Virus record (IMG/VR): IMGVR_UViG_2740892426_000006
Direction: 5' to 3' (one strand)
Length of the DNA: 34,415 bases
DNA from: a virus
Lineage: Duplodnaviria > Heunggongvirae > Uroviricota > Caudoviricetes
Below, one piece after another: positions 5,014-34,415 of the stretch. The translations under genes were made by a program, and so were the position numbers. The notes under the pieces are model-generated. The model saw only the letters and a list, made by a program, of their open reading frames with translations. It made no database searches and had not been told where the DNA came from. The first letter of the stretch is position 1. Each line of letters starts with the position of its first letter.

Positions 5014-5096
5014 GTTGCTAACGAATCATCCTGGACTTCATATGCCCCAGGCGGCTACTTCGTGGGCGTCCTGCCTGTTCGTTATCTTTGATATAA

Positions 5097-5125
5097 AATC
5101 TAACTTAACTTAGTTATTATGGCAA
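5097..5125 (-). promoter_or_regulatory. candidate leftward promoter (pL-like) with embedded operator-like palindrome
   Basis: On the minus strand: TTGCCA, 17-nt spacer, TAGATT. The spacer contains CTAACTTAACTTAG, which resembles the palindromes in the cI-cro intergenic region. Confidence 0.3.
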
Positions 5126-5178
5126 GAGAAAACACCAAACTTTTCTTAGTTCGGTGCCTTAGTTAGAGAAGAGAGGTC

Positions 5179-5805
5179 TTAGAGTTCGTATTGAACTCCT
5201 TTGACTACACCAATGATAAGGCAATTACCATTGATAGGGATGTTGGGATACCGAGGATTTAATGGCACTAAAAACTTTTGAGGGCCATCGATGACTAATT
5301 TTTTTACTGTAGCTTCGTTTGTTCCATCAAGTCGAGCGATGACTATTTTTCCATGACGAGGTTCTGCATCTGGATCTACAATCACTGTTGCGCCTTCTGG
5401 TATTGTTGGGAGGCCATTAGGGTTAGTCATGGAGTCACCTTTAACCTCTAATGCAAATGAGTTATCACCAATCTTTAATGATGTATCTACCCACTTGTCC
5501 ACTTCACTAAACACTTCTGCTGCCCTGCACTCAGTAAACTGCCCAGCCTGAACCCACGATATTACAGGAACTCTGCGCATGTTTGTGACGAGTTTGCCTT
5601 CAAACTCAGCACCATAAAGAATGTAATCTATTGACGTATTGAAGAACTTCGCTAATTTCGAAAGTGCCTCCCCACCAGGGGTATTGATGTCTTTCTCCCA
5701 GTACCCCACAGCAACGTCGCTTACTCCACAAAATTTACCCAATTCTTTCTGGGACGTTCCGGTAACTCTTCTCAGAGCTTTTATACGCTGACCAACCGTT
5801 TCCAT
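5179..5805 (-). CDS. cI: CI-type prophage repressor (HTH plus LexA-like S24 autopeptidase domain)
   Basis: 208 aa; N-terminal HTH (SQKELGKFCGVSDVAVGYWE); C-terminal S24-like region with GDSM motif and a downstream K; divergent from cro. Confidence 0.85.
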   Translation of the reverse strand: METVGQRIKALRRVTGTSQKELGKFCGVSDVAVGYWEKDINTPGGEALSKLAKFFNTSIDYILYGAEFEGKLVTNMRRVPVISWVQAGQFTECRAAEVFSEVDKWVDTSLKIGDNSFALEVKGDSMTNPNGLPTIPEGATVIVDPDAEPRHGKIVIARLDGTNEATVKKLVIDGPQKFLVPLNPRYPNIPINGNCLIIGVVKGVQYEL

Positions 5806-5825
5806 AGGAGCACCATTTCTTGAAT

Positions 5826-5890
5826 TGCTAAGTAATCTTAGTTTTTATTGACCAAAGATAGATTTGTAATTAGCATCTAATAAAAATTAG
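5826..5890. promoter_or_regulatory. operator/promoter region between cI and cro (oR, pRM, pR)
   Basis: Three palindromes built from TTAG/CTAA half-sites: CTAAGtaatCTTAG (5828-5841), ATTAGcatCTAAT (5869-5881), CTAATaaaaATTAG (5877-5890). Confidence 0.45.
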
Positions 5891-5902
5891 CTTGGAGGGC
5901 GT

Positions 5903-6103
5903 ATGACAACTGACGATATCGAAAGCTACTTCGGCAGTATTGAGAAAGTTGCTGCTTTTTTCGGCATAACAACTGAAGCCGTTTATCAGTGGCGAAACCG
6001 TCCGGGCCAGTTAATTCCAAAAGGACGTGCAGCAGAAGCTGCATATAGAACTTGCGGACGGTTGCCATTTAAACCTGAGCTTTATGAAAAATCTAATGGA
6101 TAA
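5903..6103 (+). CDS. cro: Cro-like small HTH regulator
   Basis: 66 aa, GGAGGG Shine-Dalgarno, divergent from cI; the segment FGITTEAVYQWRN resembles a Cro-type HTH. Confidence 0.65.
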   Translation: MTTDDIESYFGSIEKVAAFFGITTEAVYQWRNRPGQLIPKGRAAEAAYRTCGRLPFKPELYEKSNG

Positions 6104-6692
6104 ATCGATTAACAGAAACCACAGAACGATGAGGCTAACCGTGGGTAAGCATCACTGGAAAGTAGAAAAACAGCCTGAGTGGTACGTGAAAGCTGTCAGA
6201 AAAACTATCGCAGCGTTGCCGGGTGGTTACGCTGAAGCAGCTGACTGGCTGGATGTAACAGAAAACGCATTATTTAACCGCCTTCGTGCCGATGGCGATC
6301 AGATTTTCCCGCTGGGATGGGCAATGATTTTGCAACGTGCTGGTGGAACTCACTTCATTGCTGACGCTGTGGCGCAGTCTGCAAATGGCGTCTTTGTGTC
6401 TCTTCCTGACGTCGAGGATGTGGACAACGCCGATATTAACCAGCGCCTGCTGGAAGTCATTGAACAGATTGGCAGTTATTCCAGACAGATTCGTTCGGCA
6501 ATCGAAGACGGTGTGGTGGAACCGCATGAGAAGACAGCAATTAACGACGAGCTGTATCTCTCAATTTCGAAGCTGCAGGAGCATGCAGCACTGGTCTACA
6601 AAATCTTTTGCATTTCAGAAAGTAATGACGCCCGCGAGTGTGCAGCTCCGGGCGCCGTGGCGTGTCGTGACTGTGGAGAAACTAACGCATGA
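6084..6692 (+). CDS. CII-like phage regulatory protein (start uncertain)
   Basis: ORF immediately after and overlapping the cro 3' end. Candidate starts at 6084, 6096, 6129 or GTG 6141. The position is that of lambdoid cII; family assignment is from memory only. Confidence 0.45.
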
Positions 6693-7027
6693 ACAGTTTA
6701 ACAACACACTACCGTCGCTCGCAACTGATTGCGCTTCCTGTACCGGGTGGAAAAGCGAAGGTGGAGTATTGCTATGCAGTAAATGTACCAGGTGGCAGGG
6801 TAATTGTAACCCACAGCTTTGCAGAGTGGGCTGTGGGTGATTTTAACCGGCAAAAGGAGACAGTCCTTTGCGACAAGTTAACCGCTGGTTCAAAGATCAC
6901 TACGGAGTACCCGTCAGAGTCATTCGTTGGGAGCCGGAAACACAACGGGTTATCTACCTCCGCGAAGGCTATGAGCATGAATGCTTCAGTCCGCTCGAAC
7001 AGTTTCGTCGTAAATTCAGGGAAATAG
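6689..7027 (+). CDS. hypothetical protein, 112 aa
   Basis: ATGA start/stop overlap with the preceding gene; ends 10 nt before the O-like start. Overlapping ORFs exist in two other frames, so this call is weak. Confidence 0.3.
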
Positions 7028-7036
7028 AGGTCGGTC

Positions 7037-7978
7037 ATGAGCACTAAATTAACCGGCTATGTATGGGATGGTTGCGCAGCGTCAGGCATGAAATTATCCA
7101 GCGTGGCAATTATGGCACGCCTGGCTGATTTCAGTAATGACGAAGGTGTGTGCTGGCCATCAATTGAAACCATTGCCCGCCAGATTGGCGCGGGGATGAG
7201 TACCGTCAGAACGGCTATCGCACGGCTGGAAGCAGAAGGCTGGTTAACGCGTAAGGCGCGTCGCCAGGGTAACCGCAATGCGTCGAATGTTTATCAGCTT
7301 AACGTTGCGAAGCTTCAGGCTGCGGCTTTTTCTCAACTGTCAGATTCTGACCCGTCAAAATCTGACGCATCAAAATCTGACCCGTCAAAATTTGATGCGT
7401 CGAAATCTGGCAAAAAAGCGGGTTTTCACCCGTCAGAATCTGGCGGGGATCCGTCAGTAAAATCAAAACATGATCCGTCAGATAAAAAAACTTCTCGTCC
7501 GGACGCTTCGCAACCGGACACGCAGAAGGCTGAACAGGATTTTTTAACTCGCCATCCTGATGCGGTTGTATTCAGCCCTAAAAAGCGCCAGTGGGGGACG
7601 CAGGATGATTTGACCTGCGCACAGTGGCTCTGGAAAAAAATCATCGCCCTGTACGAGCATGCCGCCGAATGTGACGGCGAGGTGGTTCGTCCCAAAGAAC
7701 CGAACTGGACAGCCTGGGCAAACGAAATTCGCCTGATGTGTGTGCAGGATGGTCGTACTCATAAACAAATCTGCGAGATGTACAGCCGCGTCAGTCGCGA
7801 TCCGTTCTGGTGCCGTAACGTGCTCAGCCCGTCGAAGCTGCGGGAAAAATGGGATGAGCTTTCCCTGCGCTTATCGCCGTCCGTCAGCACGTACACCGAA
7901 AAACGCGAGGACCCGTACTTCAAAGCCAGTTACGACAACGTGGACTACAGCCAGATCCCGGCAGGATTCAGGGGGTGA
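7037..7978 (+). CDS. replication initiation protein (O-like), N-terminal HTH, internal repeat linker
   Basis: GAGGT Shine-Dalgarno; N-terminal segment CWPSIETIARQIGAGMSTVRTAIARLEAEGWL is HTH-like; a 5-aa repeat linker (SDPSK/SDASK) is encoded by the DNA iterons. Confidence 0.7.
   Translation: MSTKLTGYVWDGCAASGMKLSSVAIMARLADFSNDEGVCWPSIETIARQIGAGMSTVRTAIARLEAEGWLTRKARRQGNRNASNVYQLNVAKLQAAAFSQLSDSDPSKSDASKSDPSKFDASKSGKKAGFHPSESGGDPSVKSKHDPSDKKTSRPDASQPDTQKAEQDFLTRHPDAVVFSPKKRQWGTQDDLTCAQWLWKKIIALYEHAAECDGEVVRPKEPNWTAWANEIRLMCVQDGRTHKQICEMYSRVSRDPFWCRNVLSPSKLREKWDELSLRLSPSVSTYTEKREDPYFKASYDNVDYSQIPAGFRG
7346..7420. repeat. iteron array (five tandem 15-bp units) inside the O-like gene; candidate origin of replication
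   Basis: tctgacccgtcaaaa / tctgacgcatcaaaa / tctgacccgtcaaaa / tttgatgcgtcgaaa / tctggcaaaaaagcg; further ccgtcaga copies and an A-rich tract (gataaaaaaa) extend to about 7490. Confidence 0.5.
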
Positions 7979-7980
7979 GC

Positions 7981-8469
7981 ATGAGTCTTTTGAATGACGT
8001 TCAGAAATTCATTGAAGCCCATCCGGGCTGTACTTCCGGAGACATTGCGGATGCTTTTGCAGGTTACTCACGGCAGCGCGTTCTGCAGTCAGCAAGCAAG
8101 TTACGTCAGAGTGGGCGTGTGGCTCACCGTTGTGAAGGGGATACACGCAGACATTTCCCGCGCCTGACTGAGAGAGCGCAGGAGGCGGAACCGCAACCAG
8201 TTCGTGAAACCAGACCTGTGCGCAATTTCTATGTCGGCACTAACGACCCGCGGGAGATTTTGTGCCTGACCCGCCAGGCTGAAGAACTGGAGTCCAGGGG
8301 CTTATACCGTCGTGCTGCAACGGTGTGGATGGCGGCATTCCGTGAAAGCCACTCCCAGCCAGAACGAAACAATTTTCTGGCGCGTCGTGAGCAGTGTTTA
8401 CGGAAAAGCAGCAAGCGCGCTGTATCGGGTGATGAGTGGTATCTGTCAGGGAATTACGTGGGGGCGTAA
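7981..8469 (+). CDS. winged-helix protein with PerC/ANR-like C-terminal motif
   Basis: ATG at 7981 after AGGGGG. The C-terminal segment LESRGLYRRAATVWMAAF resembles my recollection of the PerC-family signature; not aligned. Confidence 0.4.
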   Translation: MSLLNDVQKFIEAHPGCTSGDIADAFAGYSRQRVLQSASKLRQSGRVAHRCEGDTRRHFPRLTERAQEAEPQPVRETRPVRNFYVGTNDPREILCLTRQAEELESRGLYRRAATVWMAAFRESHSQPERNNFLARREQCLRKSSKRAVSGDEWYLSGNYVGA

Positions 8470-8795
8470 TGACGACGTTAACTCAATGCCAGCAGCAGGT
8501 GCTGGATATGCTGATTTCTTATCAGAAAGAGCGTGGCTTTCCGCCAACCAATCAGGAGGTGGCAACCATGCTGGGATACCGTTCAGTGAATGCAGCGGTG
8601 GAGCATCTTCGCGCACTGGAGAAAAAAGGCGTCATCACGATAAAGCGTGGCGTGGCCCGGGGGATAACGCTTCATACCGCGGTGAAGGACGACGACAGCG
8701 AGGCGGTCGGGATTATCCGCGCACTGCTTGCCGGTGAGGAAAACGCAAGGCTGCGTGCAACCCACTGGTTACATGAGAGGGGCCTGAAAGTATGA
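8469..8795 (+). CDS. LexA N-terminal DNA-binding-domain-like protein without a peptidase domain
   Basis: MTTLTQCQQQVLDMLISYQKERGFPPTNQEVATMLGYRSVNAAVEHLRALEKKGVI parallels the E. coli LexA N-terminus; only 108 aa, so no S24 domain. TAATG coupling with the upstream gene. Confidence 0.6.
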   Translation: MTTLTQCQQQVLDMLISYQKERGFPPTNQEVATMLGYRSVNAAVEHLRALEKKGVITIKRGVARGITLHTAVKDDDSEAVGIIRALLAGEENARLRATHWLHERGLKV

Positions 8796-11927: not shown

Positions 11928-12458
11928 ATGTTATACCGAGATCTTTTGCCTATTTTCTCAGAAAGACCCATATTTAAAGCTCCTGAGGCTGAAAGAATAC
12001 TTCGTGAGCAATATTCTATCGCCGCCCCCACTCCTGTAATTCAGGAGATTTATTATGGATTGGCAGGTTATGACAGATTTCAGGAGCTTTATGGGGATCT
12101 TAATATTGACCAAATCGAATGGAAATTGATTGAACTTCCCACTAAAAATTTTTTAACTATCGGGGATAATGCTACTTACCCTGATTTTTTGCATGAGGTC
12201 GTTGAAGATTTCACAACCCGTAAAGGCGATGTATTTATGGATGATGAAATAAAAGCGCATTGGTGTAATTTTGGCACATGGTGTGAACCTCCATTTTTTA
12301 TAGATCGAGCTTTGCTGAAAAGTAATACAACAGGGCTTCATTTAATGGAAGGGCATACAAGAGTTGGAACCCTGTTAGGGGCAGTTAAGTATAACTTCGT
12401 TAAGCTTGCTAATACTCATAAAATTTATTATGCGCAAGCAAAAGAATGTATTAAATAA
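11928..12458 (+). CDS. AT-rich moron protein, 176 aa, unknown function
   Basis: Clean ORF immediately after tR'; markedly lower GC than its flanks; followed by a terminator. Confidence 0.5.
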   Translation: MLYRDLLPIFSERPIFKAPEAERILREQYSIAAPTPVIQEIYYGLAGYDRFQELYGDLNIDQIEWKLIELPTKNFLTIGDNATYPDFLHEVVEDFTTRKGDVFMDDEIKAHWCNFGTWCEPPFFIDRALLKSNTTGLHLMEGHTRVGTLLGAVKYNFVKLANTHKIYYAQAKECIK

Positions 12459-12495
12459 GTTGAGTGAAATTACTGTTTTTTTTTTAACAATACTT

Positions 12496-12517
12496 ACCGC
12501 GTTCTCGCGGTTTTTTT
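12496..12517 (+). terminator. rho-independent terminator after the moron
   Basis: accgcg-ttct-cgcggt followed by a run of seven T. Confidence 0.5.
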
Positions 12518-12640
12518 ATAAATTAAACATTGGTGCAGTACGGTAAACACGCTGGTGGTCGTGAATACTGACTTTTTATCTTGCTGGCTTTTTAGACAAG
12601 AGTTATTGGTATGTCATGTTAACCATGAAGGTAAAAAGAC

Positions 12641-12835
12641 ATGCTAAAACAGCAAGATATGACAGAAACGGCGAAAGTTGTTTTTAATGAATTAAACGGC
12701 AAACCGGCAACAGTCGGGGAGATAGCACAAAACACATACCTTTCACGCGAACGCTGTCAGTTAATACTGACCCAGCTGGTTATGGCGGGGCTGGCAGATT
12801 ACCAGTTCGGCTGTTACAGACGCCTTCAGCAATGA
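12641..12835 (+). CDS. small winged-helix-like protein, 64 aa
   Basis: AAGG 9 nt upstream of the ATG; helical, HTH-like composition; upstream of the methyltransferase. Confidence 0.4.
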   Translation: MLKQQDMTETAKVVFNELNGKPATVGEIAQNTYLSRERCQLILTQLVMAGLADYQFGCYRRLQQ

Positions 12836-12984
12836 AGGGCTTTTAATTTGTGAAAATGGGCGGCTGGTGGGTGTTGGTAGCACCTGCCAGCCATTCGCTC
12901 ATGCTTACTGGTCACAAGCGAACCATGGCCCACTGCTTTAGCGCAAAAGCAGAGTGAGCCTACCAGAGTTACGCTTACTGATCC

Positions 12985-14046
12985 ATGAAAAACACTGTAA
13001 AAATAAACAGTATTGATTTAATCAACGCTGATTGCCTGCATTTTATTCAGTCCCTGCCTGATGATTCCATTGACCTGATTGTTACCGATCCGCCTTACTT
13101 CAAGGTGAAACCCAACGGTTGGGACAATCAGTGGAAAGGGGACGAAGATTACCTTAAGTGGCTGGACCACTGTCTGGCCCAGTTCTGGCGGGTGTTGAAA
13201 CCTGCCGGAAGCCTTTACCTGTTCTGTGGGCATCGCCTGGCATCTGATATTGAGATCATGATGCGTGAACGTTTCAACGTGCTTAACCATATCATCTGGG
13301 CGAAGCCGTCCGGACGTTGGAATGGGTGTAATAAAGAAAGTCTGCGCGCATATTTTCCTGCCACAGAGCGCGTTCTGTTTGCTGAACATTACCGGGGGCC
13401 ATATCGCGGCAAAAGTGACGGCTATGTGGCAAAAGAAAGGGAACTCAAACAGCACATAATGGCACCGCTGATATCGTATTTCAGGGATGCTCGTGCCGAA
13501 CTGGGTATAACGGCAAAACAAATTGCCGAAGCCACAGGTAAGAAAAATATGGTTTCCCACTGGTTTGGTGCCAGTCAGTGGCAGTTGCCGAATGAGGCTG
13601 ACTACCGGAAGTTACAGGCACTGTTTTCCCGTATAGCGGCAGAGAAGTTTCAGGAACAACAACTGGAACAACCACACCACCAGTTGGTGGCATCTTATGA
13701 TTCACTGAATCGCAAATATTCTGAATTGCTGGATGAGTTTAAATCTCTCCGGCGCTATTTCTCCGTATCAGTCTCCGTGCCTTATACCGATGTCTGGATG
13801 CATAAACCCGTTCAGTTCTACCCGGGTAAACATCCGTGTGAGAAACCGGCGGATATGCTCAGGCAAATAATCAATGCCAGTAGTCGACCCGGCGATCTGG
13901 TTGCTGATTTCTTTATGGGATCCGGTTCCACAATAAAAGCAGCAATGGCGCTGGGGCGTCGGGCGTTAGGTGTTGAGCTTGAGACAGAGCGGTTTAATCA
14001 GACCATCCAGGAAATCAGTATGTTATCAGCAAATACAATTTTGTGA
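12985..14046 (+). CDS. orphan DNA methyltransferase (N6-adenine/N4-cytosine class; motif IV precedes motif I)
   Basis: DLIVTDPPY (motif IV) near the N-terminus and FFMGSGST (AdoMet-binding motif I) near the C-terminus; no restriction endonuclease gene adjacent. Confidence 0.8.
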   Translation: MKNTVKINSIDLINADCLHFIQSLPDDSIDLIVTDPPYFKVKPNGWDNQWKGDEDYLKWLDHCLAQFWRVLKPAGSLYLFCGHRLASDIEIMMRERFNVLNHIIWAKPSGRWNGCNKESLRAYFPATERVLFAEHYRGPYRGKSDGYVAKERELKQHIMAPLISYFRDARAELGITAKQIAEATGKKNMVSHWFGASQWQLPNEADYRKLQALFSRIAAEKFQEQQLEQPHHQLVASYDSLNRKYSELLDEFKSLRRYFSVSVSVPYTDVWMHKPVQFYPGKHPCEKPADMLRQIINASSRPGDLVADFFMGSGSTIKAAMALGRRALGVELETERFNQTIQEISMLSANTIL

Positions 14047-14288
14047 ATTAATTCAATTATTGGTGGGATGTCTGTGCCGTATAATGATTACAGATACAGT
14101 GTATCCTGCAATGCAGCAGGGCTGATGTGGTGGGTTGTACATAGCCTGCAAAGGATTGGCTTCATTAATTCATCGTTGATACAAGCGAGTCACGGTTGAC
14201 CACGCCAACGGCTCATCGGTAAAAATCCGACACCGTGTCTTCTTAACTCACTTATTGTTTCCACCCATGTTTTTGGATACCTGCTGTA

Positions 14289-14326
14289 GCTGTCAGATTA
14301 GCGCGATAATCTGACAGCTTTTTTTT
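14289..14326 (+). terminator. strong rho-independent terminator
   Basis: Perfect 12-bp stem gctgtcagatta/taatctgacagc with loop gcgcga, then eight T. Confidence 0.6.
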
Positions 14327-14617
14327 ACAACGAATCCTTCTGATCTGCTTTCGCGGGGCTTTTTTGTATCCGCTCCATGCCCGGCGTATAAGCGGAGGTT
14401 GGTCAGTTTTCTAAAAATTGAAATACCTCACAATTCAGCCAGTTAATGGTTGTTTGTCTGGCGAAGAGTTTGTAAATAAAAAAACGCATGGTGAATCCCC
14501 CTAAGCGGCGGGGCGAATCAGCAGTCAGTTCTGGGATAATCGCGGGTTCGTATGCTGATGCCGGACTCACCGGGAGGCACCCGGCACCATGCATCATGGT
14601 CATCCCCTTGTATGATA

Positions 14618-14642
14618 CCCCTCTCCGGAGGGGTATTTTTTG
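14618..14642 (+). terminator. rho-independent terminator
   Basis: cccctc-tccg-gagggg hairpin followed by tattttttgg. Confidence 0.45.
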
Positions 14643-15073
14643 GATAAAAAAGCCCGCGCTGGGAGGCACGGGCGGCAAGGAATAAAACGTGAAGAAATTT
14701 TCACAGGCGCATAATAATCCGATGTTGCCAGATTTTGCAACTGCATCATCTGGTTATTATGTGAGCTGGAAAATCAGATTCTGTATGGACTGAAGCCATG
14801 CTGTTATTTAGGGCCAAAGAGCTGGCTTTTTCCCGCCTTCTCTCCAGTAACGATTAATGAGAAAAGAATGAAATGCTTTTCCTGGGGAGGAGGGCAGTAG
14901 AAAAAAGAACCCGCCAGCAAAAATATGGGGGATGAACAGCTTTTGCTACTCAGGTTGCTGGCGGGTATGGTTCTTCATGAAATAAGAATGTTACGCGGTA
15001 TTTTTAATGAAAATGATAATTATTGTCAATTGGTTGTGCGTATTTTTTCATACATGACTGGTAAAGGTGATTC

Positions 15074-15106
15074 AGGCCATCAGAGTTTTGCTGATGGCCT
15101 TTTTTC
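15074..15106 (+). terminator. rho-independent terminator just upstream of the holin (second tR'-like element)
   Basis: 10-bp stem aggccatcag/ctgatggcct with loop agttttg, then ttttt. Confidence 0.55.
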
Positions 15107-15138
15107 TTTCCGGTAGCACAGGTCTGTTGGGGCGGGAT

Positions 15139-15354
15139 ATGTATCAGATGGAAAAAATATCAACAGGCATTGCCTACGGCACCTCCGCAGGCAGTGCTGG
15201 CTACTGGTTTTTACAATGGCTTGATCAGGTTAGTCCGTCTCAGTGGGCTGCGATTGGTGTACTGGGAAGTCTGGTTCTGGGCTTTCTGACTTATCTGACG
15301 AATCTGTACTTCAAAATCAGAGAAGACAGAAGAAAGGCTGCGAGAGGAGAGTAA
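15139..15354 (+). CDS. S: phage 21-type class II holin (pinholin) with dual-start motif
   Basis: 71 aa [71 protein letters not shown]; Met1 and Met4 mirror the S21-71/S21-68 dual starts; two TM segments. Confidence 0.8.
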
Positions 15355-15358
15355 TATA

Positions 15359-15703
15359 ATGGTCCAAAACTATGAAATGATTGTGAAAGGGATCCGCAAT
15401 TTTGAGAATAAAGTTACGGTAACTTTAGCATTACAGGACAAAGAACGCTTTGACGGTGAAATTTTTGACCTGGACATCTCGCTGGACCGTGTTGAAGGTG
15501 CCGCGCTGGAGTTTTATGAGGCAGCAGCCAGAAGGAGCATCAGACAGGTCTTCCTGGATGTTGCTGCCGGGTTATGTGGAGGGGATGAGCAGTCGCCGGA
15601 AAAGCGCCCCATAATTTTAGAGGCGCAGAGTGTGTGGATAACCTACAAAGGAAAACTGCCGGGAAGAATTACTGGTTCACTGAAGACTCCGCCGAAATGG
15701 TAA
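15359..15703 (+). CDS. hypothetical protein between holin and endolysin (YdfR-position)
   Basis: ATG 4 nt after the holin stop with a GAGAGGAGAG Shine-Dalgarno; occupies the slot of ydfR in Qin-type lysis cassettes as I recall them. Confidence 0.45.
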   Translation: MVQNYEMIVKGIRNFENKVTVTLALQDKERFDGEIFDLDISLDRVEGAALEFYEAAARRSIRQVFLDVAAGLCGGDEQSPEKRPIILEAQSVWITYKGKLPGRITGSLKTPPKW

Positions 15704-15941
15704 TTTCACCAGCATATTTTTCCTCCAGTAATACCGCCAGCCACTTGAAAGAATTTTGTTGTTGCTGGGACCATTTGGGATTGATTGATTCAAGCTGGAG
15801 CGATGCCAGTGTTGGTTGCATTTGTTCCTTGGGAATTGAGAATGCCAGATATGAAAATGCGACAGCAAGGGCATTTACATCATCCCGAAGCCTGGAAATG
15901 CAGTCGAGCAACTCCTGTAGAGAAATGGTGCTATTGTCCAT
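15669..15941 (-). CDS. hypothetical protein, 90 aa, convergent with the preceding gene
   Basis: ATG at 15939-15941 preceded by AGAGAGGA with 6-nt spacing; amphipathic helical composition; its 3' end overlaps the preceding gene by 35 nt. Confidence 0.4.
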   Translation of the reverse strand: MDNSTISLQELLDCISRLRDDVNALAVAFSYLAFSIPKEQMQPTLASLQLESINPKWSQQQQNSFKWLAVLLEEKYAGEITISAESSVNQ

Positions 15942-16046
15942 AAACAATCCTCTCTATTGTATTTAACTATTCCTTGCCTGATTCAACAGGCCGGGACAGA
16001 TAAACATATCCAGGGTTCAGAAACCGATAAATCCTGATAAATATCC

Positions 16047-16580
16047 ATGAACGCAAAAATCAGATACAGCCTGTCGGCTACTGTACTAGTGCTGATTGGT
16101 GCAGGCGCGTCTGCTCCTCAAATACTTGACCAGTTTCTGGACGAAAAAGAAGGTAACCACACAACGGCATACCGTGATGGTTCCGGCATCTGGACCATCT
16201 GTCGGGGTGCCACGATGGTGGATGGAAAACCCGTTTTTCCCGGTATGAAACTGTCGAAGGAAAAATGCGACCAGGTTAACGCCATTGAACGTGATAAGGC
16301 GCTGGCATGGGTGGAACGTAATATTAAAGTACCACTGACCGAACCACAAAAAGCGGGTATCGCGTCATTTTGCCCCTATAACATTGGCCCCGGTAAGTGT
16401 TTCCCGTCGACGTTTTATAAGCGGCTTAATGCCGGTGATCGTAAAGGTGCCTGTGAGTCGATTCGCTGGTGGATTAAGGACGGTGGGCGTGATTGCCGCA
16501 CTCGTTCAAATAACTGCTACGGACAGGTTATTCGTCGTGACCAGGAAAGCGCATTAGCCTGTTGGGGGATAGATCAGTGA
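16047..16580 (+). CDS. R: SAR endolysin (T4-lysozyme-like muramidase with N-terminal signal-anchor-release segment)
   Basis: 177 aa; N-terminal hydrophobic Gly/Ala-rich segment [15 protein letters not shown]; E..D..T catalytic spacing in [16 protein letters not shown]. Confidence 0.8.
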
Positions 16581-16668
16581 GAAGAGTAGCCGCGATTATC
16601 TCCGCTCTGGTTATCTGCATCATCGTCTGCCTGTCTTGGGCTGTTAATCATTACCGTGATAACGCCAT

Positions 16669-16747
16669 TACCTACAAAGCCCTGCGCGACAAAAATGCCA
16701 GAGAACTATACCTACAAAGCCCTGCGCGACAAAAATGCCAGAGAACT
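16669..16747. repeat. 39-bp perfect tandem duplication with 1-nt spacer inside Rz
   Basis: tacctacaaagccctgcgcgacaaaaatgccagagaact occurs at 16669-16707 and 16709-16747, separated by a single a. Confidence 0.9.
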
Positions 16748-16836
16748 GAAGCTGGCGAACGCGGCAATTACTGACATGCAGATGCGTCAGCGTGATGTTG
16801 CTGCGCTCGATGCAAAATACACGAAGGAGTTAGCTG

Positions 16837-17019
16837 ATGCGAAAGCTGAAAATGATGCTTTGCGTGATGATGTTGCCGCTGGTCGTCGTCGGTTGCACAT
16901 CAAAGCAGTCTGTCAGTCAGTGCGTGAAGCCACCACCGCCTCCGGCGTGGATAATGCAGCCTCCCCCCGACTGGCAGACACCGCTGAACGGGATTATTTC
17001 ACCCTCAGAGAGAGGCTGA
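16837..17019 (+). CDS. Rz1: Rz1 o-spanin lipoprotein, embedded in the +1 frame of Rz
   Basis: 60 aa with lipobox LVVVGC and a PPPPP tract; near-identical to lambda Rz1 from memory. Confidence 0.85.
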
Positions 17020-17109
17020 TCACTATGCAAAAACAACTGGAAGGAACCCAGAAGTATATTAATGAGCAGTGCAGATAGAGTTGCTCATATCGATGGGCAA
17101 CTCATGCAA

Positions 17110-17403
17110 TTATTTTGAGCAATACACCCGCGCTTCCTGCGGAGTATAAATGCCAAAAGTGATGAAACCGAGCAATCCATTTACGAATGTTTGCTGGGTT
17201 TCTGTTTTAACCACATTTTCTGCACCACCACAAATTTTTGCTGCATCGACAGTTTTCTTCTGCCCAATTCCCGAAACGAAGAAATGATGGGTGATGGTTT
17301 CCTTTGGTGTTACTGCTGTAGGTTTGTTTCCAACAGTAAACGTCTGTTGAGCACATCCTGTAATAAGCATTGCCAGAGCGGCAGAAAACAACATTTTTTT
17401 CAT
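17110..17403 (-). CDS. bor: Bor lipoprotein (serum-resistance protein)
   Basis: 97 aa from MKKML with lipobox LITGC; near-identical to lambda Bor from memory. Confidence 0.85.
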   Translation of the reverse strand: MKKMLFSAALAMLITGCAQQTFTVGNKPTAVTPKETITHHFFVSGIGQKKTVDAAKICGGAENVVKTETQQTFVNGLLGFITFGIYTPQEARVYCSK

Positions 17404-17883
17404 CTTATTATCCTGCATTGTTAAAAACGGCAGAATCCTATGTGACAACAATTAAACGATAGTTAAATGGATTGATGAAAATTAAAACTACACAGGTGAG
17501 CTCAGACGATTGGAGGGAGTTGGGGACACTCAGAATCCTGTGGAATGAAATAAACCGGTCTATCCGTCCATTACCCTTTTAGCTGCGCTGTATCGTCGCC
17601 GTATTCCCGCATTAACCATGACCGTAGCCCGACGGGGAATTCCTTCTGCGTGAGTGTGCGGGAATAATTAAAAACGATGCACACCGGGTTTTTACCGCGT
17701 TAATGATTCGCGGATTTATCCCGGTGCGATGGTGGAAGAAACCGGAAGCTGTATTACAGAAAGTGCTACTACTGTATCCCGATGCGATGTATGTAATGTG
17801 AGTCAGATAATGGCACAGGATGTGGTGATGTGGCAGTCTGGAACACAGGATATATTGTCAGAATAAGACCCGTAGGAATAAAA

Positions 17884-18210
17884 ATGAAAAGACGCCTTTT
17901 ACTACTTTTTCTGTTATCTGTCCTAGCAGTGGGATGCTCGCAGCAAAAAGCTGATGAGCCCCGGCAATTAGTGACGGTGTATCCACGATATCCGGAATAT
18001 GCTGCAGCAAATTATATCAAGGGGCTGGTTGAGGTTAAGTTCGATATTGGTGCTGATGGGACTGTGACACGGATCGTTTTTCTCCGCTCAGAGCCTCATA
18101 ATTTGTTTCGTGATGAAGTGGTGAAGGCCATGGCGAAATGGCGATTTGAAAAGAATCGTCCCTGTCAGGGAGTGAAGAGACAATTTATCTTTACGCCGTC
18201 ACGTCCCTGA
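17884..18210 (+). CDS. lipoprotein with TonB C-terminal-like domain
   Basis: Signal peptide with lipobox LAVGC; the segment YPEYAAANYIKGLVEVKFDIGADGTVTRIVFL...AMAKWRF fits a TonB C-terminal fold pattern. Confidence 0.55.
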   Translation: MKRRLLLLFLLSVLAVGCSQQKADEPRQLVTVYPRYPEYAAANYIKGLVEVKFDIGADGTVTRIVFLRSEPHNLFRDEVVKAMAKWRFEKNRPCQGVKRQFIFTPSRP

Positions 18211-18332
18211 TGCTTCCAGGTAGAGAGGGGCTGGAAGCAGGAGAAAAATGAAAGAGCCAGCGGTTATATTTTTGTCATGGCTGACGAGGAATGATGGAAG
18301 AAGGCGTTGTATGCCACACAACGCCTCACTGT

Positions 18333-18512
18333 TCATTTCTTCTTTTTCTCTAGTGGAACCCGATGAATAAGAGTTGCACTGGTTTCCGATGAGATGGCGA
18401 TATACTCGGGCAAAGTATGCTGGCAGTTTTCCAACTGGTCAAAAATACCTGCTCTCGTCTGTTGCAATGCCTGCAGCATGCGGCGGCAATGCGCCTTGCT
18501 TTTGCTAACCAT
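18333..18512 (-). CDS. small hypothetical protein, 59 aa
   Basis: ATG preceded by GAGGAAGG; the longer track ORF upstream is P/S/H-rich low complexity. Confidence 0.3.
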   Translation of the reverse strand: MVSKSKAHCRRMLQALQQTRAGIFDQLENCQHTLPEYIAISSETSATLIHRVPLEKKKK

Positions 18513-18573
18513 CTTTCCTTCCTCTATCAGTCGCTGCGTGAACTCATCATGGAATACCAAGTAAATGCGGATG

Positions 18574-18825
18574 TTATCGGTTTTGGCTACGCAGCATAGT
18601 ACAAAACGGACAGGTGCATCCCGGGACGGGGGAGGCGTCACATGTCCCTGTGATGGTTGTTCCGGGTAATGCACTGTGTGGGGCATAAAAATGTCCGATA
18701 ATTTTACTTTCTACCGCAGTTAGTTGATTCGTTGGTCCTGGTAGCACATTGGGCGAGGATTTAAATGCCAGGCAACTGAAGGATGATGTTGCAAGGGAGA
18801 TAGCGAGAATATTTCTGATTTTCAT
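18574..18825 (-). CDS. small secreted cysteine-rich protein, 83 aa
   Basis: N-terminal signal peptide MKIRNILAISLATSSFSCLA; mature part ends in CDASPVPGCTCPFC. Confidence 0.4.
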   Translation of the reverse strand: MKIRNILAISLATSSFSCLAFKSSPNVLPGPTNQLTAVESKIIGHFYAPHSALPGTTITGTCDASPVPGCTCPFCTMLRSQNR

Positions 18826-18974
18826 TTGATGATGCCTCTGTGTGAAATGACGGTAAACGACGCACTTGTGCCGGCACATAATAGCAAGCACCATAATAGA
18901 TCAGATTCGATTCTTGCTGTAAGTGATAATTATTCTCGTTTTTCGGGTCCTTTCCGGCGATCCAACAGGCTACG

Positions 18975-19163
18975 GGGCGGCGACCTCGCGGGTTTTCGCT
19001 ATTTATGAAAATTTTCCGGTTTAAGGCGTTTCCGTTCTTCTTCGTCGTAACTTAATGTTTCTATTTAAAATACCCCCTGAAAAGAAAGGAAACGACAGGT
19101 GCTGAAAACGAACTTTTGGGCCTTTGTCGTTTCCTTTCTCTGTTTTTGGCCGTGGAATGAACA
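18975..19163. other. cos: cos site: cosN cohesive-end sequence GGGCGGCGACCT (18975-18986) followed by cosB
   Basis: Matches the lambda left-end sequence GGGCGGCGACCTCGCGGGTTTTCGCTATTTATGAAAATTTTCCGG... as I recall it; directly upstream of Nu1. Confidence 0.85.
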
Positions 19164-19683
19164 ATGGAAGTCAACAAAAAGCAGCTGGCTGACATTTTCG
19201 GTGCGAGTATCCGTACCATTCAGAACTGGCAGGAACAGGGAATGCCCGTTCTGCGAGGCGGTGGCAAGGGTAATGAGGTGCTTTATGACTCTGCCGCCGT
19301 TATAAAATGGTATGCCGAAAGGGATGCTGAAATTGAGAACGAAAAGCTGCGCCGGGAGGTTGAAGAACTGCGCCAGGCCAGCGAGGCAGATCTCCAGCCA
19401 GGGACTATTGAGTACGAACGCCATCGACTTACGCGTGCGCAGGCCGACGCACAGGAACTGAAGAATGCCAGAGACTCAGCTGAAGTGGTGGAAACCGCAT
19501 TCTGTACTTTCGTGCTGTCGCGGATCGCAGGTGAAATTGCCAGTATTCTCGACGGGATCCCCCTGTCGGTGCAGCGGCGTTTTCCGGAACTGGAAAACCG
19601 ACATGTTGATTTCCTGAAACGGGATATCATCAAAGCCATGAACAAAGCAGCCGCGCTGGATGAACTGATACCGGGGTTGCTGA

Positions 19684-19709
<26 letters not shown>
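19164..19709 (+). CDS. Nu1: terminase small subunit
   Basis: 181 aa starting MEVNKKQLADIFGASIRTIQNWQEQGMPV; lambda Nu1-like. Confidence 0.95.
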
Positions 19710-23390
<3,681 letters not shown>

Positions 23391-32399: not shown

Positions 32400-33097
32400 T
32401 GCAGGATATCCGGCAGGAAACACTGAATGAATGCACCCGTGCGGAGCAGTCGGCCAGCGTGGTGCTCTGGGAAATCGACCTGACAGAGGTCGGTGGAGAA
32501 CGTTATTTTTTCTGTAATGAGCAGAACGAAAAAGGTGAGCCGGTCACCTGGCAGGGGCGACAGTATCAGCCGTATCCCATTCAGGGGAGCGGTTTTGAAC
32601 TGAATGGCAAAGGCACCAGTACGCGCCCCACGCTGACGGTTTCTAACCTGTACGGTATGGTCACCGGGATGGCGGAAGATCTGCAGAGTCTGGTCGGCGG
32701 AACGGTGGTCCGGCGTAAGGTTTACGCCCGTTTTCTGGATGCGGTGAACTTCGTCAACGGAAACAGTGACGCCGATCCGGAGCAGGAGGTGATCAGCCGC
32801 TGGCGCATCGAGCAGTGCAGCGAACTGAGCGCGGTGAGTGCCTCCTTTGTACTGTCCACGCCGACGGAAACGGATGGCGCTGTTTTTCCGGGACGTATCA
32901 TGCTGGCCAACACCTGCACCTGGACCTATCGCGGTGACGAGTGCGGTTATAGCGGTCCGGCTGTCGCGGATGAATATGACCAGCCAACGTCCGATATCAC
33001 GAAGGATAAATGCAGCAAATGCCTGAGCGGTTGTAAGTTCCGCAATAACGTCGGCAACTTTGGCGGCTTCCTTTCCATTAACAAACTTTCGCAGTAA
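32399..33097 (+). CDS. L: tail tip protein L
   Basis: 232 aa; TGATG coupling to M; C-terminal Cys cluster. Confidence 0.9.
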   Translation: MQDIRQETLNECTRAEQSASVVLWEIDLTEVGGERYFFCNEQNEKGEPVTWQGRQYQPYPIQGSGFELNGKGTSTRPTLTVSNLYGMVTGMAEDLQSLVGGTVVRRKVYARFLDAVNFVNGNSDADPEQEVISRWRIEQCSELSAVSASFVLSTPTETDGAVFPGRIMLANTCTWTYRGDECGYSGPAVADEYDQPTSDITKDKCSKCLSGCKFRNNVGNFGGFLSINKLSQ

Positions 33098-33102
33098 ATC
33101 CC

Positions 33103-33846
33103 ATGACACAGACAGAATCAGCGATTCTGGCGCACGCCCGGCGATGTGCGCCAGCGGAGTCGTGCGGCTTTGTGGTAAGCACGCCGGAGGGGGAAAGATA
33201 TTTCCCCTGCGTGAATATCTCCGGTGAGCCGGAGGCGTATTTCCGTATGTCGCCGGAAGACTGGCTGCAGGCAGAAATGCAGGGTGAGATTGTGGCGCTG
33301 GTCCACAGCCACCCCGGTGGTCTGCCCTGGCTGAGTGAGGCCGACCGGCGGCTGCAGGTGCAGAGTGATTTGCCGTGGTGGCTGGTCTGCCGGGGGACGA
33401 TTCATAAGTTCCGCTGTGTGCCGCATCTCACCGGGCGGCGCTTTGAGCACGGTGTGACGGACTGTTACACACTGTTCCGGGATGCTTATCATCTGGCGGG
33501 GATTGAGATGCCGGACTTTCATCGTGAGGATGACTGGTGGCGTAACGGCCAGAATCTCTATCTGGATAATCTGGAGGCGACGGGGCTGTATCAGGTGCCG
33601 TTGTCAGCGGCACAGCCGGGCGATGTGCTGCTGTGCTGTTTTGGTTCATCGGTGCCGAATCACGCCGCAATTTACTGCGGCGACGGCGAGCTGCTGCACC
33701 ATATTCCTGAACAACTGAGCAAACGAGAGAGGTACACCGACAAATGGCAGCGACGCACACACTCCCTCTGGCGTCACCGGGCATGGCGCGCATCTGCCTT
33801 TACGGGGATTTACAACGATTTGGTCGCCGCATCGACCTTCGTGTGA
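33103..33846 (+). CDS. K: tail tip assembly protein K (long form including the N-terminal JAMM/MPN-like region)
   Basis: 247-aa ORF containing an HSHPGG motif; as I recall, the classical lambda annotation starts at an internal Met and gives 199 aa. Confidence 0.85.
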   Translation: MTQTESAILAHARRCAPAESCGFVVSTPEGERYFPCVNISGEPEAYFRMSPEDWLQAEMQGEIVALVHSHPGGLPWLSEADRRLQVQSDLPWWLVCRGTIHKFRCVPHLTGRRFEHGVTDCYTLFRDAYHLAGIEMPDFHREDDWWRNGQNLYLDNLEATGLYQVPLSAAQPGDVLLCCFGSSVPNHAAIYCGDGELLHHIPEQLSKRERYTDKWQRRTHSLWRHRAWRASAFTGIYNDLVAASTFV

Positions 33847-34415
33847 AAACGGGGGCTGAAGCCATCCGGGCACTGGCCACACAGCTCCCGGCGTTTCGTC
33901 AGAAACTGAGCGACGGCTGGTATCAGGTACGGATTGCCGGGCGGGACGTCAGCACGTCCGGGTTAACGGCGCAGTTACATGAGACTCTGCCTGATGGCGC
34001 TGTGATTCATATTGTTCCCAGAGTCGCCGGGGCCAAGTCAGGTGGCGTATTCCAGATTGTCCTGGGGGCTGCCGCCATTGCCGGATCATTCTTTACCGCC
34101 GGAGCCACCCTTGCAGCATGGGGGGCAGCCATTGGGGCCGGTGGTATGACCGGCATCCTGTTTTCTCTCGGTGCCAGTATGGTGCTCGGTGGTGTGGCGC
34201 AGATGCTGGCACCGAAAGCCAGAACTCCCCGTACACAGACAACGGATAACGGTAAGCAGAACACCTATTTCTCCTCACTGGATAACATGGTTGCCCAGGG
34301 CAATGTTCTGCCTGTTCTGTACGGGGAAATGCGCGTGGGGTCACGCGTGGTTTCTCAGGAGATCAGCACGGCAGACGAAGGGGACGGTGGTCAGGTTGTG
34401 GTGATTGGTCGCTGA
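33744..34415 (+). CDS. I: tail tip assembly protein I
   Basis: 223 aa; stop codon is exactly at the window end; lambda gpI-like. Confidence 0.9.
   Translation: MAATHTLPLASPGMARICLYGDLQRFGRRIDLRVKTGAEAIRALATQLPAFRQKLSDGWYQVRIAGRDVSTSGLTAQLHETLPDGAVIHIVPRVAGAKSGGVFQIVLGAAAIAGSFFTAGATLAAWGAAIGAGGMTGILFSLGASMVLGGVAQMLAPKARTPRTQTTDNGKQNTYFSSLDNMVAQGNVLPVLYGEMRVGSRVVSQEISTADEGDGGQVVVIGR

Follow-up and report, generated by a model that had tools for sequence, protein, structure and literature searches.

A 34,415-nucleotide stretch of DNA, hereafter the window, holds a lambda-like E. coli prophage with integrase, replication genes, Q antiterminator, lysis cassette, terminase, head and tail genes, in which the i-spanin gene Rz is split between two reading frames by a 39-nt direct duplication and one additional junction base. 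The best explanation of the data as a whole, which we hold with moderate confidence, is a recent 39+1-nt duplication within an otherwise intact prophage that produced a null i-spanin allele, left the o-spanin Rz1 intact and could revert. Here, we describe the lesion and its setting, weigh the alternative accounts of its origin, and compare the resulting allele with the known spanin genes of lambda and of prophages at the DLP12 site.

Duplication and frame disruption in Rz

A repeat search across the 34-kb window recovered a perfect 39-nt direct repeat, TACCTACAAAGCCCTGCGCGACAAAAATGCCAGAGAACT, with one copy at 16669-16707 (plus strand, Rz codons 31-44) and the other at 16709-16747 (plus strand). 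Tandem Repeats Finder reported a single array at the Rz lesion, with a period of 40, 2.0 copies and 100% matches, and no comparable second duplication in the rest of the 34-kb window. Both searches thus bear out the original prediction of a perfect 39-bp repeat with a 1-nt spacer at 16669-16747. By our own arithmetic, the number of perfect 39-mers expected by chance to recur at a distance below 100 nt over 34 kb comes to some 3.4e6 x 4^-39 (roughly 1e-17), and the repeat is therefore a duplication rather than a coincidence.

The nature of the junction became apparent when the window was compared with the single-copy sequence of NZ_AP017610.1, the closest complete genome, which placed one filler base, an A, at position 16708 of the plus strand. 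The wild-type sequence at the unit boundaries reads ...CCAT|TACC...GAACT|GAAG..., and the junction A resembles neither wild-type flank, namely the T on the 5' side and the G on the 3' side. The insertion is therefore composed of 39 duplicated bases and one filler, with a periodicity limited to 39 nt. Had 40 bp been duplicated cleanly in tandem, the junction would read T or G rather than the A seen in the window, and a 39+1 event calls for an added filler nucleotide or else for a second mutation, G-to-A at the last base of copy 1. The A at 16708 could thus have arisen as a filler nucleotide, by a second G-to-A mutation or through a consensus error. Comparison of the duplication boundaries (CCATTACC and AACTGAAG) revealed no microhomology, and simple 40-bp slippage was rejected as the complete origin since the periodicity covers just 39 nt and such homology is missing at the boundaries; the junction base itself argues mildly against simple slippage. 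As a separate observation, the junction creates a minus-strand -10-like TATAGT (window 16705-16732) with a TTGTCG 16 nt upstream, together giving 9/12 consensus matches. This promoter-like site was discarded as a signal, as the scan returned 9 sites against 8.2 expected by chance.

A codon walk established the consequences for the reading frame. Rz starts at GTG 16577, where it overlaps the endolysin stop as GTGA, and its native residues extend to L44 (codon 16706-16708, now CTA), beyond which 21 residues are read out of frame up to a TGA at 16772-16774. The truncated plus-strand frame, 16577-16774, thus encodes 44 native and 21 out-of-frame residues. Because the 39-nt duplication alone would add 13 codons in frame, it is the extra A at 16708 that causes the frameshift. 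The original C-terminal frame of Rz resumes from copy 2 onward and ends at TAG 17076-17078, in a frame that differs from that of the GTG start. With boundaries taken from lambda Rz (PMC5295617), the N-terminal transmembrane anchor (approximately residues 4-24) falls within the 16577-16774 fragment, for which Pfam reported no family at the curated cut-off. The complete periplasmic coiled-coil of Rz is instead contained in a plus-strand ORF at 16656-17078, which has no membrane anchor and no export signal. In this ORF, PF03245 (Phage_lysis) matched with an E-value of 1.6e-53, covering profile positions 3-126 of 126 and residues 18-140, and homology to the periplasmic domain of Rz is thus retained. 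The two parts that a single-polypeptide i-spanin unites, anchor and periplasmic coiled-coil, consequently lie in different frames, and the codon walk together with the PF03245 match in the downstream frame confirmed the earlier claim that a 40-bp insertion splits Rz and leaves a fragment bearing the transmembrane domain that ends at 16774. When the 40 bp were removed in silico, a 153-aa protein identical to RzpD of NZ_AP017610.1 was obtained. Judged from its sequence, Rz of the window is a pseudogene of the embedded two-component spanin family and not a working member.

Translation downstream of the lesion was also considered. The shifted-frame stop lies 1 nt 5' of an in-frame ATG corresponding to Rz M54, forming the plus-strand motif TGAcATG at 16772-16778. 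At best, reinitiation at this motif could produce an anchorless cytoplasmic fragment, Rz 54-153, and should not restore function. No Shine-Dalgarno motif was found ahead of the possible starts of the ORF at 16656-17078. Rescue by reinitiation, either at 16772-16778 or at ATG 16695, was therefore rejected, since the products would carry neither anchor nor export signal and the starts lack a Shine-Dalgarno sequence.

Rz1, the lysis cassette and the prophage

Rz1 itself reads through as an uninterrupted 60-aa o-spanin at 16837-17019 on the plus strand and matches PF06085 with an E-value of 2.9e-20 over profile positions 1-40 of 41. It displays the lipobox VVGC with Cys20, a further Cys29 and a penta-proline stretch, and thus combines a lipobox-cysteine lipoprotein, a proline-rich mature part and PF06085 homology, as an o-spanin should. 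The gene lies wholly inside 16577-17078, in the +1 frame relative to the C-terminal frame of Rz, which is the embedded type of arrangement. An AAGGAG Shine-Dalgarno sequence is located at 16824-16829 (plus strand), 7 nt upstream of the Rz1 ATG (upstream sequence GCAAAATACACGAAGGAGTTAGCTGATG), so the translation start of Rz1 is independent of the Rz frame. The exact protein, named RzoD, occurs on at least 1,000 contigs, and the expectation that the duplication leaves Rz1 unaffected was thus upheld. Apart from these findings, RefSeq annotates rzpD at 19578-20039 of NZ_AP017610.1 with no rzoD feature, though the embedded Rz1 ORF is present there; embedded o-spanin genes are easily missed by annotation pipelines.

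The surrounding cassette is ordered as P21-type pinholin, DUF1327/YdfR moron, lysozyme-family endolysin, Rz/Rz1 and convergent iss/bor, with the spanin genes downstream of holin and endolysin and the Rz start overlapping the lysozyme stop. The P21-type class II holin (pinholin) is intact at 15139-15354 (plus strand; PF04971, E-value 1.1e-35) and corresponds to the 'class II holin family protein' of NZ_AP017610.1. The endolysin, a member of the phage lysozyme family, is likewise intact at 16047-16580 (plus strand; PF00959, E-value 2e-24), with zero amino-acid differences from NZ_AP017610.1, and its Gly/Ala-rich hydrophobic N-terminal segment suggests a P21-type SAR endolysin. On the opposite strand, the iss/bor lipoprotein gene (17110-17403, minus strand; PF06291, E-value 3.9e-31), annotated as 'increased serum survival lipoprotein Iss' in NZ_AP017610.1, converges on the lysis cassette and is untouched by the Rz lesion.

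Several further elements were observed in and around the cassette. The region 15359-15947, between pinholin and endolysin, contains the DUF1327/YdfR gene (plus strand, 114 aa) and an overlapping antisense ORF of 90 aa; the two split the lysis cassette, and both are conserved and annotated in NZ_AP017610.1. At 17884-18210 (plus strand), a gene for a small protein with a TonB_C domain and a lipoprotein-like N-terminus lies, together with iss, between the lysis cassette and the terminase; both are cargo genes that may be relevant to virulence. Upstream of the holin, a full-length match to the Rfam STnc100 sRNA (14457-14645, plus strand; 114.5 bits, with a gathering score of 47) is positioned between a DNA methyltransferase gene and the holin, amid terminator-like hairpins at 14288-14673. 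The Q antiterminator probably acts on this stretch, as the leader and terminator region of the late promoter. Further upstream, a 15-nt unit, TCTGACCCGTCAAAA, is repeated 4.3 times at 7346-7409 (plus strand) inside the gene for a 313-aa HTH_36 replication protein (7037-7978), and these repeats resemble an origin of the iteron type lying within an O-like gene, the arrangement known from lambda.

Comparison with complete genomes further placed the lesion in an otherwise well-preserved prophage. The window opens with an integrase gene, whose counterpart in NZ_AP017610.1 adjoins tRNA-Arg, the DLP12 site. Over window positions 12,000-22,000 this genome shows zero mismatches and lacks the 40 bp, with its rzpD annotated as intact. 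Three complete genomes are 100% identical over 5 kb around the Rz lesion, each being 40 bp shorter. Alignment of window 8,463-34,415 to NZ_AP017610.1 gave 124 SNPs in aligned blocks, and approximately 31 kb of ungapped alignment contained no further indel. All 40 mappable coding sequences of that genome, a set that runs from int to tail gene K and excludes Rz, were recovered without internal stops (40/40), most of them identical; the right end of the prophage lies beyond the window. Tail genes L and K carry 12 and 14 residue changes, respectively, in dense SNP clusters (32400-34415), while the immunity region at approximately 5083-6116 has been replaced and the adjoining 6116-8472 is 97.4% identical. 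As read from these alignments, the prophage of the window is a natural mosaic relative distinct from that of NZ_AP017610.1. Rz is the sole broken gene seen, and the prophage is not a decayed remnant.

Origin of the duplication

Rz-like DNA is abundant: of the 5,426 complete E. coli genomes, 5,140 carry it, at 15,558 places altogether, with a median of 2 Rz-like places per genome with a match. The best matches all span 462 bp of sequence against the 502-bp query, which corresponds to one repeat copy. A 46-nt probe across the junction had no match in the 5,426 complete E. coli genomes by either megablast or sensitive blastn, the latter of which would accept a different filler base at the junction, while a positive-control 46-mer made from the repeat with its normal right flank retrieved 3,043 records. 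The junction was also absent from IMG/VR viral contigs, as an exact and as a degenerate pattern (0-2 filler bases), and from GTDB species-representative genomes, JGI metagenome contigs, GenBank phages and PLSDB plasmids. At the protein level, four start-codon variants of the two Rz fragments were found nowhere among approximately 15 billion proteins, and the repaired 153-aa Rz occurs on at least 850 contigs. The lesion is thus a singleton, private to one genome. The earlier suggestion of a slippage-prone site is not supported by these data, given that none of these 15,558 places in the 5,140 genomes shows the junction again and that the duplication boundaries are free of microhomology.

We consider it fairly probable that the lesion is a recent private mutation in real DNA, whether natural or acquired in culture. 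The leading alternative, that the duplication arose as an artefact of assembly, consensus or library and that the real genome is single-copy with an intact Rz, appears unlikely but deserves serious weight. It would account for a lesion that is unique among every collection searched and whose flanking 10 kb are identical to a genome with intact rzpD, as well as for a 39+1 junction without microhomology, which is atypical of natural slippage. Against it, no other indel or broken gene was encountered in the approximately 31 kb of alignment, so the assembly was not error-prone in general, and Tandem Repeats Finder detected no similar duplication. Moreover, mis-traversal of a repeat alone would be expected to yield a perfect period-40 copy, and the new k-mers would need support in reads or consensus. 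The junction k-mers are new and would not have been made by an assembler walking the repeat twice, which favours a real molecule; we infer that the duplication is present in the DNA, beyond the assembly.

A deliberate or laboratory alteration, such as engineering or passaging of a derivative under selection for poor lysis, is very unlikely. A clean 39-nt copy with an arbitrary base amid an otherwise perfect match is as compatible with such an origin as with a natural event, but neither vector sequence nor a scar or marker is present in the window, and its remaining differences from relatives look like natural mosaicism.

Still less credible is a selected functional state, be it a domestication step that keeps iss and other cargo or a reversible ON/OFF lysis switch operating by gain and loss of a copy. 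The allele is intrinsically reversible, as one-copy deletion restores the wild type exactly, and the virulence-associated iss adjoins the lysis cassette. However, the lesion or a variant of its junction was seen in no other genome or protein set, with no sign of selection or recurrence, and two copies of a 40-nt unit are unlike a contingency-locus repeat. Variable copy number among strains, as would be expected of a phase-variable locus, was not observed, with 0/3,043 records carrying the two-copy junction even when mismatches were allowed. Every other phage gene is intact, and an induced cell would die anyway, leaving little gain to the host. The original prediction had raised possible domestication, and this idea did not withstand the comparison, as the 40/40 other mappable coding sequences are intact, no other indel is present and the lesion is a singleton. 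In a cryptic prophage, several essential modules would be deleted or inactivated and the lesion would be conserved across the host lineage. Between int and tail gene K no such loss of modules was seen, and both the junction and its products are absent from the collections searched. Furthermore, loss of the spanin would not save an induced host, to which holin and endolysin would already be lethal, and the absence of a survival benefit weakens the domestication idea. The specific proposal that the tandem copy acts as a reversible spanin switch, in which OFF lysogens hold back release and rare precise deletions regenerate lytic phage, is the most improbable of all; if true, it would imply bet-hedging control of the last lysis step through gain and loss of a tandem duplication.

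Predicted lysis defect and relation to known spanins

In lambda Rz, the anchor comprises residues 1-24 and coiled-coil 1 residues 27-87 (Cahill et al., PMC5295617). Nonsense mutations at 34 positions of the periplasmic domain were all lysis-defective, with only the last residue being dispensable, and lysis is blocked when either spanin subunit is defective; in the spanin-null end state, cells remain unlysed as Mg-stabilised spheres enclosed by the outer membrane (PMC5295617). Since lambda Rz is 98.4% identical in DNA to that of the window, lambda genetics was applied here, and given the lambda truncation data, a frameshift after residue 44 is predicted to create a null i-spanin allele. In the proposed sequence of events, duplication of 39 nt where coiled-coil 1 begins (Rz codons 31-44), together with one junction base, would shift the frame by +1, and ribosomes initiating at the Rz GTG would produce a 65-aa membrane-anchored stub that stops at 16774. 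The periplasmic coiled-coil and C-terminal domain of Rz, needed to bind Rz1, would be detached from the anchor and export signal, while Rz1 would presumably still be translated from its own Shine-Dalgarno sequence but would be useless alone. Upon induction, holin and endolysin would remain able to kill the cell and break down its wall. The outer membrane would then be neither fused nor disrupted, which would result in spherical cells stabilised by Mg2+ or still conditions and in poor phage release. By analogy with lambda, the allele thus predicts a conditional, spanin-null lysis defect, with the caveat that a pinholin and a probable SAR endolysin act here rather than lambda S and R. In addition, a compatible Rz might come in trans from another prophage of the genome that carries this one.

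The allele is also predicted to be unstable. In silico, deletion of either copy together with the filler gave DNA identical to the intact rzpD of NZ_AP017610.1. Close short direct repeats in E. coli are lost by RecA-independent slippage in a manner that depends on homology and proximity, as summarised from Bzymek and Lovett 2001 in PMC7063769. With two 39-nt copies 1 nt apart, slippage could delete one copy and the spacer and thereby restore wild-type Rz, and because this restoration is exact, wild-type revertants would be expected to arise in any culture.

In biological terms, the lesion is ordinary, being a pseudogene allele of a known gene. For annotation, rzpD should be flagged as a pseudogene with a 40-bp insertion frameshift and rzoD as intact, and any prediction of prophage viability in this strain should allow for a lysis defect that is probable and conditional. 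In an iss-carrying prophage that is otherwise complete, the allele provides a natural match to the laboratory genotype in which Rz is null and Rz1 intact, as well as a worked example of a frameshift that would revert exactly through repeat deletion. If available, the strain could serve as a natural spanin-null lysogen, although no new question is opened by it.

Structural comparison with lambda Rz/Rz1 revealed a close relationship. Apart from the 98.4% identity of the whole-gene DNA, the two share PF03245 and PF06085, an Rz1 embedded in the +1 frame with its own Shine-Dalgarno sequence, and a cassette position immediately following the endolysin and preceding bor. The repaired Rz of the window further shares the N-terminal transmembrane domain, two periplasmic cysteines and the C-terminal ...EQCR of its lambda counterpart. 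Unlike its lambda counterpart, Rz of the window is divided between two frames through the 39+1-nt duplication, leaving no i-spanin as written; it starts at a GTG overlapping the endolysin stop and is accompanied by a P21-type pinholin and a lysozyme-family endolysin in place of S and R. The rzpD/rzoD genes of DLP12-site prophages are similarly related. They share the integration site, with the integrase next to tRNA-Arg in NZ_AP017610.1, and the PGAP names 'prophage endopeptidase RzpD' for the single-copy allele and 'prophage lysis lipoprotein RzoD' for Rz1. DLP12 of K-12 is a heavily deleted cryptic prophage, whereas the window has a full set of head, tail, replication and lysis genes, intact except for Rz. 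A further parallel is found in the Rzam (amber and nonsense) mutants of lambda (Cahill et al. 2017, PMC5295617), in which Rz is likewise truncated within coiled-coil 1 while Rz1 is intact, and whose phenotype, no lysis and Mg-stabilised spherical cells, would by analogy be expected here as well. Unlike these point nonsense mutations, the lesion in the window is a tandem-duplication frameshift, and it would revert by precise deletion with no need of a suppressor or back-mutation.
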